DNA from: Saccostrea cucullata | Lineage: Eukaryota | DNA: 64,000 nt | Direction: 5' to 3' | NCBI RefSeq assembly: GCF_032062105.1 | Contig: NW_026928409.1 | Location: 124,001-188,000 of the forward strand | Shown here: positions 55,084 to 57,802 of the stretch, in pieces | Numbering within the stretch: the stretch's first letter is position 1 | How the letters are laid out: each line of letters starts with the position of its first letter | Position numbers and translations under genes: made by a program | Notes under the pieces: model-generated | Database searches by the model: none | Seen by the model: the letters and a program-made list of their open reading frames with translations, nothing else | Told to the model about the DNA's origin: nothing

Positions 55084-57596
55084 ATGAGTGTTCCATATCC
55101 AAAATACTTGTTTTTCTTTATCATTTGTTTTGTATTCTTGCTCTGTATTGTCCTTTACATAAGAAATAGCAACACTGATTTTAAATCCGAGACAAATGCA
55201 AGGATCCATGGTCAAGAATCAATTAGAGACATTAAGGTACTTCTTACTTATTTGTATTACTATATGAATATTATAATCAAATTGCATTTTATCATTTTCT
55301 TCATTCATTGAGTGTGATACAAATTAAATACACTCATCCCTTCTTAATGTTTTGTATATTAAGGATGTTAAGAGTTCGTGTGAAGAGGGAGAAATCCTGT
55401 TAGACGTTAACTTTCAACCTTTAGATTTGAATTCATTGGGAGACGAGATTTCAGGGAGCAATTTAGTTAAGGTAAATTTCATTGAAAGTGTTCATTTTTA
55501 CTACGAATGGAAACAAAACACTTTAAAATGAAAATTTTATATAAATTGTTTGAATCAATAAAAATGTTTCAGAGTGAAGAAGAGTACATAATTGCACTTT
55601 TGAATTGGACAAAACCATTCCATAACAGCACGTGTATAAAAGAGTCCCACTTCCTGGAGTTTTTTGTTCCGGGTAAGGTGGTGGGTGAGGTTTGGAAGCT
55701 ATACGAAGGTCAGAAGGGTGAGCTATCACATAATCGTCACGATCCACCCCTTTATTCAGGAATACAGGGAGTTTTATTTGACCTTCTCCAAAATTTTCAT
55801 GATAAGCCTTTTCTACAAACAAGATTCGAACCAAGAGGGGGATATTCAGCATTACGAGCCATAAATGGAGATATTGCTGATATTTATTTTAGGTGACTTT
55901 TTCAACATAATATATTCAGAGGCTGATACTTTTTACTGAACAAATGAAAAACTAAGATAACATAAATACCTGGTAATAATTGAATTGTTTACTTTGCTTT
56001 TCAAGAATCGGATAATTAACTTTACTCTTCTCCCCTAGGTTCCATGCAGAATTTCAATTGAATGAGAAGCCATTACTACCTTTTTGGTTTACTCCAGCAT
56101 ATTTTACCGGAAATATAATTCTAGATACCAGAACTAAAGAAACACACCACTTCCATTTGTATGTTCCAAACACGAATGAATTGAATGTTGGTAAATATTC
56201 ATTAATTTGAGATCTATTAAAGAATTTGAGATTTAAATCAACAATTTTAGAGTATTTTAAGGAACGTAACGTAGCAAATTATTATTTTGCATGGTAATTA
56301 TGCACTGAATATTTCGAATTTATCTGAATTAGAAATGAATAACCCCCTCCTTACAGATTTAGAATGGTATGGAAGTAACAGACCTAACGATAATTTAATG
56401 GTGGACATCGGATTCCTTCCAGTTATGGAGTTGAAATCTATCCCTCGTTCAGAAGAATTACAGTGGTTACGTGAAAAGTCTATCAAAGAAATCCAAAGTG
56501 ATCTGGAAAAGGCTTTCTTTCCATTTAAGCAGGTGTGTCTTTAAATGAAACCTTTTCGATATCTTCTAAAGTCCTGAATAATAAAGTCCTCAAATTGATT
56601 TTTTTTTAAATTTATATTTACTTGTGTGCACATCTTTTATCTCATGTACATGATAGGTAGACTACTTACCATTTGAGGAAGCAATTAAAGTGGCCCAAGC
56701 AGAGAGCAAATTGATTCATCACATTGTATTGTGGGGATCTCTTGATGACCAGTCATGCTGAGGTACCCATGGACAAAAGTCAAATCAAAACTATATCTTC
56801 CTACCATCATATTTATCCAGACTGATATCCCTGAATATCAAGTACTTATTTATTTTTTAGGGTCGGGGCGGACTCTACGCGATGGACCACTCGCGAGTCC
56901 GCCCATAATGAAGTTCCTCAAAAATAATTTCATTTCTTCTTGGTCCCTCGTTGCAAGGCTGAAGAAGTTGGTGCATTCAACGAACAGAATTGTCTCAAAA
57001 CTGGCATCAGAAACACTTGATGCTTATTCGTAAGCTCATTTTTTCTTGTTAATTTTTAACACTTATAGCACAGAGTTGAAAAAATATTCAAAGAATTGAA
57101 AAATCTTTTAATGTTGATATTCTTATGTAACGTTCTTTGTTTTAGTTTTCCTGTGGAGATAATTATATATGACCAGAGACAGAACATTGTTCATTATGAA
57201 AATCTCAACGAATTGCTTGAAGAAGAACTACCAGAAATACTCGAGTCTGATGAGTAAAATTATTTTTGGACATTTCTTTTTTTAAGCATTTGTCAGATTG
57301 ATATAAATTTTCTTTGAAAGTTTCTTTATAAAAAATTGATTTTCGTAAAAACCAAATTTTGTCATCATTAGTAAAGAAGTCTACATATACATGTATACTA
57401 ATTTATTTAAATTACATTAGTATGTATAAGGTAAATACAAATACAAATCTCTCACTGTCTGTTGGAGGCAGAAGTCATGATCTATTTTATCTCTGATTTC
57501 ATTTCTTACAGGTACGAGGATATCTTGTCTTATAGGTATTCTAAAATGTTAAGAAGAGCAATGGCTGCCGCCGGTAGAGATGTCACAGAGCTTTAA
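55084..57596 (+). CDS. SELENON: Selenoprotein N-like (458 aa, 9 exons; Sec UGA at 56759-56761)
   Basis: Exons 55084-55236, 55364-55471, 55573-55892, 56039-56190, 56357-56532, 56657-56762, 56861-57029, 57146-57253, 57512-57596 (1377 nt). N-terminal TM helix. SelN motifs [90 protein letters not shown]. Confidence 0.93.
56866..56904 (+). promoter_or_regulatory. Selenocysteine redefinition element (SRE) hairpin
   Basis: GGGCGGACT-cta-CGCGA-tggaccac-TCGCG-AGTCCGCCC begins 6 nt after the UGA in the spliced mRNA, as in vertebrate SELENON. Confidence 0.85.
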
Positions 57597-57725
57597 AGAA
57601 AGTAAACGCGAAATCATGTGAAAAAGAGATGCATAAATTGTTTTCTTAAGCATCAAGTTTAAAGAACTAGTTTGTTATTATGGCCAAAACAAGGAATTGG
57701 GACTTTCCGCTGCATGCAAGCAAGA

Positions 57726-57802
57726 TTGGGTTTGGTTTTCTGAATGACACTGTGTATCAAAAGACTTCCGCCGGTCGATACACGGTTGAGAAAGGATTCC
57801 AA
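57726..57802 (+). promoter_or_regulatory. SECIS element (type 2) in the SELENON 3' UTR
   Basis: ATGA core (57744-57747), stem ACTGTGTATC (57749-57758) / GATACACGGT (57777-57786), unpaired AAAA (57759-57762), apical mini-stem GAC/GTC, TGAG (57787-57790). Confidence 0.9.

Follow-up and report, generated by a model that had tools for sequence, protein, structure and literature searches.

Whether the TGA codon that interrupts a gene of the oyster Saccostrea cucullata ends its protein or is read as selenocysteine (Sec), and what kind of selenoprotein N (SELENON) would be made in the latter case, is the question raised by the window analysed here, i.e., the whole stretch of 64,000 nucleotides. An earlier note had proposed a vertebrate-type SELENON set composed of an SCUG motif, an SRE and a SECIS, and SELENON homology as well as all three elements were found. 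Because this recoding set is textbook, the recoding finding as first written is ordinary, and the unusual part is likely to be what sequence comparison indicates about the gene itself, which appears to be a duplicate without an EF-hand. The complete chain, that is, a nine-exon oyster SELENON whose UGA is read as Sec and which constitutes an EF-hand-less second copy acting as a calcium-insensitive redox enzyme of the ER lumen, is considered probable.

Structure and identity of the gene

The SELENON gene lies on the + strand, and its nine exons, once joined, give 458 codons in which the sole internal stop is the TGA at codon 338. The span originally proposed, 56657..57802, covers the recoding part correctly but misses the start of the gene, the ATG at 55084, which lies well upstream. 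An ATG at 55052 was discarded as the start because its frame is full of stops, and 55084 was used instead. The features of the gene, with the evidence for each, are the following:

55084..55236, + strand: exon 1, coding part, with the start codon, a membrane anchor (about aa 7-26) and a short luminal linker without an EF-hand; RNA joint to exon 2
55364..55471, + strand: exon 2; RNA joints skipping 127 and 101 nt, GT..AG
55573..55892, + strand: exon 3, SELENON core, with N-glycosylation sequons N98 and N105; RNA joints
56039..56190, + strand: exon 4, HAEFQ...PFWF core; RNA joints
56357..56532, + strand: exon 5; RNA joints
56657..56762, + strand: exon 6, ending in ...DDQSC-UGA-G; RNA joints
56759..56761, + strand: in-frame TGA, codon 338, predicted selenocysteine in SCUG; joined reading frame
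56763..56860, + strand: intron 6, 98 nt, phase 1, between the UGA and the SRE; RNA joint, GT..AG
56861..57029, + strand: exon 7; RNA joint, 75% identity with M. gigas past the UGA
56866..56904, + strand: SRE hairpin with a covarying lower stem of 9-10 bp and a variable upper stem; folding and covariation
57146..57253, + strand: exon 8; RNA joint, 69% identity with M. gigas
57512..57596, + strand: exon 9, coding part, with the stop TAA at 57594-57596; RNA joint, 78% identity with M. gigas
57731..57802, + strand: SECIS, type-2-like, with ATGA from 57744, TGAG ending at 57790, a 10-bp helix II, an AA bulge and an apical mini-stem
57875..57880, + strand: candidate poly(A) signal AATAAA; sequence motif

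All eight introns are of the GT..AG type, and 8/8 are present at their predicted lengths as joints in RNA contigs of run X2, the source of the RNA runs being another strain or a near relative, about 95% alike to the window. The TGA and the SRE may be altered in the reads of this source. Two of the introns are also supported by raw reads of X20 or X21. The arrangement SC-TGA-G followed by a 98-nt intron, which had been read from the sequence, is borne out: the TGA is in frame within the context DDQSC-U-GSGRTL, intron 6 begins one base past it, and the corresponding joint ("skips 98") is found in one contig with a depth of 31.4, in one of the four RNA runs (X2). At this place X1 consists of unspliced DNA, and the coverage of X20 and X21 is nearly nil. 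The unspliced X1 contig is also about 100 nt shorter at window positions 56543-56668, where it has neither the acceptor of intron 5 nor the 12 nt with which exon 6 starts; a deletion allele, a decayed copy and an assembly error are possible alternatives for it.

The translation of exon 1 is the N-terminus of the database protein P0002, and exon 3 is 100% identical to the database protein "selenoprotein N-like [Saccostrea cucullata]". Among 688 candidates, 70 matches with E ≤ 0.001 were obtained, those that carry a name being either SELENON or unannotated proteins of animals. Fish entries match the window protein at E values of about 1e-59 to 1e-63, and the invariant core motifs are kept. Judged by this homology, the Saccostrea gene is SELENON by descent. 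The protein has a single N-terminal membrane anchor (hydropathy peak 3.05, predicted helix 7-33). A Pfam search gave no family for the gene, and a PDB sequence search gave 0 matches. The AlphaFold model of residues 1-337, which extends up to the UGA and is of low confidence at that end, has a pLDDT of 78 and no Foldseek match at E ≤ 0.001; its best VIA Z score of 4.8 belongs to generic beta barrels and says nothing about the fold. A thioredoxin-like domain round the SCUG, as expected of the SELENON family, may be present, the sequence past the UGA being conserved.

On the minus strand, a neighbouring gene is arranged head-to-head with SELENON (window 54964-54780 and from 53092 downward), its ATG lying 120 nt from the SELENON ATG. 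It shows a signal-peptide-like start and a 1687-nt GT..AG intron backed by read ends, and the depth of its contig in X2 is 1253.6 versus about 31-44 for SELENON. Its second exon contains cysteine, and the donor-like GTAAGT with which this exon closes makes further exons likely. The two genes possibly share a promoter. Two repeat blocks are also observed: one upstream of the gene pair (~53520-54370), in which a GGTCAAAGCG-type unit recurs in direct and inverted orientation, and one downstream (~58850-59840), composed of GACCTTGACCTT-type units. Both are likely to be non-autonomous mobile elements. The weak Rfam matches in the window, to MS2 and to MIR7486, the latter on the upstream block, were taken as chance.

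SELENON copies in bivalves

The scallop Mizuhopecten has two SELENON genes on separate contigs, P0031 (copy A) and P0178 (copy B). In 3/3 trees, the oyster rows cluster with P0031 and P0007, apart from P0178 and other mollusc proteins, and in the careful tree this divergent clade has a support of 85/94 and long branches. An AU test under a mixture model rejected the placement of the oysters in the group of P0178, a group that had been named after a tree was seen (p-AU 0.004). The careful tree and the tree for the AU test were made without the anchor and EF-hand columns; the trees contain neither the Magallana duplicates nor the majority of the vertebrate rows, and nine more rows were dropped from the tree for the AU test. 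Fourteen derived residues are common to the oyster and scallop copy A only, and two are shared with copy B only. The window protein is 39-40% identical to scallop P0178 and to P0167, whereas P0167, P0192 and P0197 are 58-60% identical to scallop copy B. Sequence comparison thus suggests that the Saccostrea gene is likely a second, fast-evolving bivalve SELENON copy, and P0167 (222 members) and P0192 are candidates for the canonical copy of oysters.

The alternative that survives best is an ordinary, single oyster SELENON orthologue, which evolves fast, has lost its EF-hand and clusters with copy A through long-branch attraction, with its recoding unchanged. The long branches would be expected in this case, no named canonical (second) oyster SELENON appeared among the matches listed (120 of 370 listed in one search), and one SELENON copy each is reported for 5/6 invertebrates in PMC3473315. 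Nevertheless, the AU test, the distribution of the derived residues in favour of copy A and the low identity to scallop copy B compared with that of P0167, P0192 and P0197 speak against a single orthologue, which is unlikely, and a second copy is the preferred reading.

SELENON is also described from some algae (PMC7539508, in part). A literature search found nothing on a bivalve SELENON duplicate or on EF-hand loss, and the original work on the SRE and the supplements of PMC3473315 may already show some of these points. In marsupials, the proteins P0064 and P0060 (in a clade with P0061, P0062, P0066 and P0069) have DDQSC-F-GPG in place of SC-U-GSG, and the usual SELENON of Sarcophilus, P0228, falls outside their clade. 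This clade is possibly a non-Sec duplicate.

Absence of the EF-hand

The EF-hand makes human SELENON a calcium sensor, and the canonical protein is described as having a calcium-dependent oligomer switch and a redox action on SERCA (PMC7474598, in part). Of 33 homologues that were aligned, 29 show the EF-hand loop; it is missing in all three oyster rows (Saccostrea, Magallana and Ostrea) and in one cricket row. Pfam detected an EF-hand in 21/31 proteins scanned and none in the two oyster proteins among them, P0002 and P0005; however, it also missed the EF-hand of P0059, P0014 and P0077, whose loop is visible in the alignment, so a blank in Pfam is by itself weak. No EF-hand remnant was found anywhere in the window, and an RNA contig joins exon 1 directly to exon 2, which leaves no room for an EF-hand exon. 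As it has no luminal EF-hand, the Saccostrea gene does not belong with the canonical, calcium-sensing SELENON genes. The orthopteran SELENON-like proteins P0058, P0047 and P0040 end at DDQSC, and the cricket one, which has no clear EF-hand loop, possibly represents an independent loss.

Calcium gating could have been kept after the loss of the EF-hand, either via another acidic site or by pairing with a canonical SELENON. There is an acidic, C-terminal stretch in exons 8-9 that could bind calcium differently, and human SEPN1 is reported to self-associate (PMC7474598, in part). This alternative is nonetheless improbable, since sequence inspection and Pfam revealed no known calcium motif and since, according to PMC7474598, human SEPN1 D80A is monomeric with or without calcium and cannot oligomerise. 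There, the monomer is associated with more redox trapping, and the constitutive activity of EF-hand mutants is left open. Because inactivation of the EF-hand leaves human SEPN1 monomeric whatever the calcium and the monomer traps more, the preferred reading is that the oyster protein would be monomeric and ungated, and it is predicted to act as a constitutive, calcium-independent reductase.

The SRE hairpin

In the spliced RNA, 6 nt (GGGTCG) lie between the UGA and the stem of the SRE (56866-56904), the same distance that had been given in the earlier note. The hairpin has a folding energy of -26.3 kcal/mol and a z score of -4.61, and 0/200 shuffles are equally stable. Synonymous recodings of the SRE peptide fold as well in 1/2000 cases under uniform codon usage and in 0/2000 under the usage of the gene, which means that the hairpin is not forced by the peptide. 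Among 442 windows of the coding sequence, the top five all overlap the SRE, and the best elsewhere reaches -16.6.

The upper stem CGCGA/TCGCG, from which deep structural conservation had been deduced, does pair (-25.5), although as the minor register, with a pair probability of 0.32; the major register (0.68) consists of the 10-bp lower stem plus GCGA/UCGC. The deduction does not follow from the upper stem, because this part is variable and by itself gives no proof of deep conservation; in the oyster, pair 16:34 is broken and the register is shifted. The covariation analysis that had been recommended places the conservation in the lower stem. With the window and 28/32 distinct downstream sequences as the set (29 sequences), both partners vary in 7/16 pairs, and at 0.252 the covariation score exceeds all 500 shuffles (mean 0.106) as well as the slid controls (≤0.186). 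Four loci were kept out of this set, L012, in which a further intron interrupts the hairpin, and L017, L028 and L042, which have no hairpin; as this favours the pairing percentage, a count over all 55 loci was made separately. Since relatedness alone can lift a set of sequences above its shuffles even where no structure exists, more weight falls on the types of pairs: AU, GU, GC, CG and UG all occur at pair 11:39, GC and CG at pair 7:43, and both UA and AU at pair 14:36. The lower stem was recovered again by RNAalifold. Judged by this covariation, the deep conservation of the SRE is real, and the compensatory changes, several of which alter amino acids, carry the element far beyond vertebrates. 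The stem, the loop and the spacer of the SRE have all been reported to matter (PMC8704476, in part).

Two groups of loci deviate from this picture. A separate 52-nt GT..AG intron lies within the SRE loop at L012:763-814 (minus strand) and L039:1347-1398; its removal in silico from L012 restores GSGRTLRETVLQSS and a hairpin of -23 kcal/mol, so that this loop intron would give a truly splice-built SRE. The GC-rich, SELENON-like loci L017, L037, L028 and L042 have the UGA and no SRE stem (2-3/9 pairs), and L042 shows a GTGA-type SECIS match. They possibly come from unicellular eukaryotes and would then suggest that the SRE is younger than SELENON.

The intron between the UGA and the SRE

The dependence of the SRE on splicing had been stressed in the earlier note, and the comparison with other loci shows that it is not a peculiarity of this gene. 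A TGA occurs at the same place in 55 metagenome loci, which were chosen for it by a pattern scan and comprise 37 genomic loci (as judged by an upstream intron), 17 mRNA-like ones and one that is unclear. A donor directly after TGA-G is present in 15/37 genomic loci, mostly coral-like, and absent in 22/37, and in 21 of these 22 neither the hairpin nor its spacing is changed; these are counts of loci and not of species, since the loci are redundant and include several near-identical coral-like records. One of the loci that bear the intron, L024, is teleost-like, with an identity of up to 95% over a stretch of 39 aa between its downstream exon and named proteins of teleosts. The Sec codon of human SEPN1 (c.1384-1386) lies in exon 10 and c.1396/1397, including the SRE position c.1397, lies in exon 11 (PMC8967691, in part), which fits the same intron position. 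On the basis of these loci, there is nothing unusual about intron 6, which is old, has often been lost and shows no sign of a control role.

According to a further alternative, intron 6 would be a control device by which Sec recoding is switched through the splicing of the SRE next to the UGA. The SRE does sit in the next exon and the position of the intron is old, but the intron-free loci that retain the hairpin and its spacing indicate that the neighbouring intron is dispensable. In addition, a transcript that keeps intron 6 runs into an in-frame stop at the acceptor, so splicing is required for any full-length product, and no regulated retention was seen at the thin RNA coverage available. 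A control device is therefore very improbable, and an ordinary old intron remains the preferred reading.

Predicted reading past the UGA

Type-2 SECIS elements are located in the 3' UTR and are characterised by an RUGA/GA core, a helix II of 10-12 bp, an unpaired AA and an apical mini-stem. The element at 57731..57802 agrees with this definition. Its ATGA lies 147 nt downstream of the TAA, close to the ~150 nt noted earlier, 10/10 helix-II pairs form, and the AA is found 11 nt above the core. Over both strands of the 64-kb window, the SECIS pattern gave a single match with at least 9 pairs, and 0.05 matches per shuffled strand are expected at 10/10. The pattern is strict and misses real elements, as it matched 6/16 mRNA-like loci. 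The Rfam model RF00031 (SECIS_1) aligns full length to the element with 24.6 bits, below its gathering score of 35 (E 0.69), and the plain MFE z score is -2.0.

Past the TGA, 120 codons stay open, with the 75%, 69% and 78% identity to M. gigas given above for exons 7, 8 and 9 and with the same final residue, and 3/4 of the read differences listed after the UGA are synonymous. Taken alone, the reading of the internal UGA as Sec is almost certain from these sequence features. SECIS-directed Sec insertion aided by an SRE, in an ER-anchored SCUG oxidoreductase, is what has been described for SELENON (PMC8704476, PMC12839072 and PMC4561486, each in part). A true stop at the TGA, with the annotated protein as the product and the hairpins as relics, is scarcely credible in view of the open and conserved frame, the synonymous differences and the intact SECIS, although the database annotation does end at the TGA and the read-through has so far been inferred from sequence. 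SelN mRNA has been classed as predicted to be sensitive to nonsense-mediated decay, yet without a selenium response (PMC4105750, in part).

The forecast that annotation would shorten or mis-splice such a gene came true. The database protein of the Saccostrea gene has 337 aa and ends at DDQSC, i.e., at the TGA, and two Magallana gigas entries, P0003 and P0128, splice round the Sec codon. Of the named invertebrate proteins in the database, 16 were picked by hand: 11 stop at the UGA, 2 bypass it by splicing, 3 are shorter still and 0 continue through it. The annotation of invertebrate SELENON, judged from these proteins, is poor.

Proposed mechanism and its implications

Following established biology, Sec would be inserted by SBP2/eEFSec under the direction of the 3' SECIS, while the SRE 6 nt past the UGA would disfavour termination, and the product would be anchored in the ER membrane in type II orientation, with its SCUG site facing the lumen. 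The trees would place the duplication in or before the pteriomorph bivalves and the deletion of the EF-hand later, on the oyster branch. A broader proposal is that pteriomorph bivalves carry an unrecognised second SELENON and that the EF-hand of true oysters was cleanly deleted, with Sec, SRE and SECIS kept under selection, so that a natural, always-on ER selenoreductase would have arisen; this is put forward tentatively, at slightly less than an even chance. If true, it would provide a natural experiment on whether SELENON requires gating by an EF-hand in order to function, and if oysters have also lost the canonical copy, their sole SELENON would be calcium-blind. As a natural deletion mutant with which the activity of ungated SELENON could be addressed, the spliced, EF-hand-less oyster copy would also bear on EF-hand variants in SEPN1 myopathy.

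Comparison with known systems

The oyster protein resembles vertebrate SELENON (SEPN1) in its N-terminal anchor, its conserved core (~40% identity to fish proteins), its SCUG motif and its 3' SECIS, as well as in the SRE downstream of the UGA and the exon boundary between the Sec codon and the SRE, which is found in human SEPN1 (PMC8967691) and in the teleost-like L024. In contrast to vertebrate SELENON, it has no EF-hand, is shorter (458 aa) and is without the insertion after the MEL motif, and its upper SRE stem is re-registered through a Glu-to-Ala codon. Its gene is apparently a duplicate, while one Sec-containing copy is described for vertebrates (PMC13134290, in part). As in the known SELENON SRE, the stem begins 6 nt past the UGA and the lower stem is conserved and covarying; here the element is seen as sequence in an oyster and in many non-vertebrate loci.

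Within the molluscs, scallop copy A (P0031) and P0007 share with the oyster protein the divergent clade, derived residues and a short N-terminus; however, both retain the EF-hand, and they are 43-50% identical to the oyster protein. The canonical mollusc group, composed of P0178, the proteins of Potamilus, Dreissena, Mactra and Lottia, and P0167/P0192/P0197, has the family core and the DDQSC end in common with it and, unlike the oyster protein, possesses an EF-hand and evolves more slowly.
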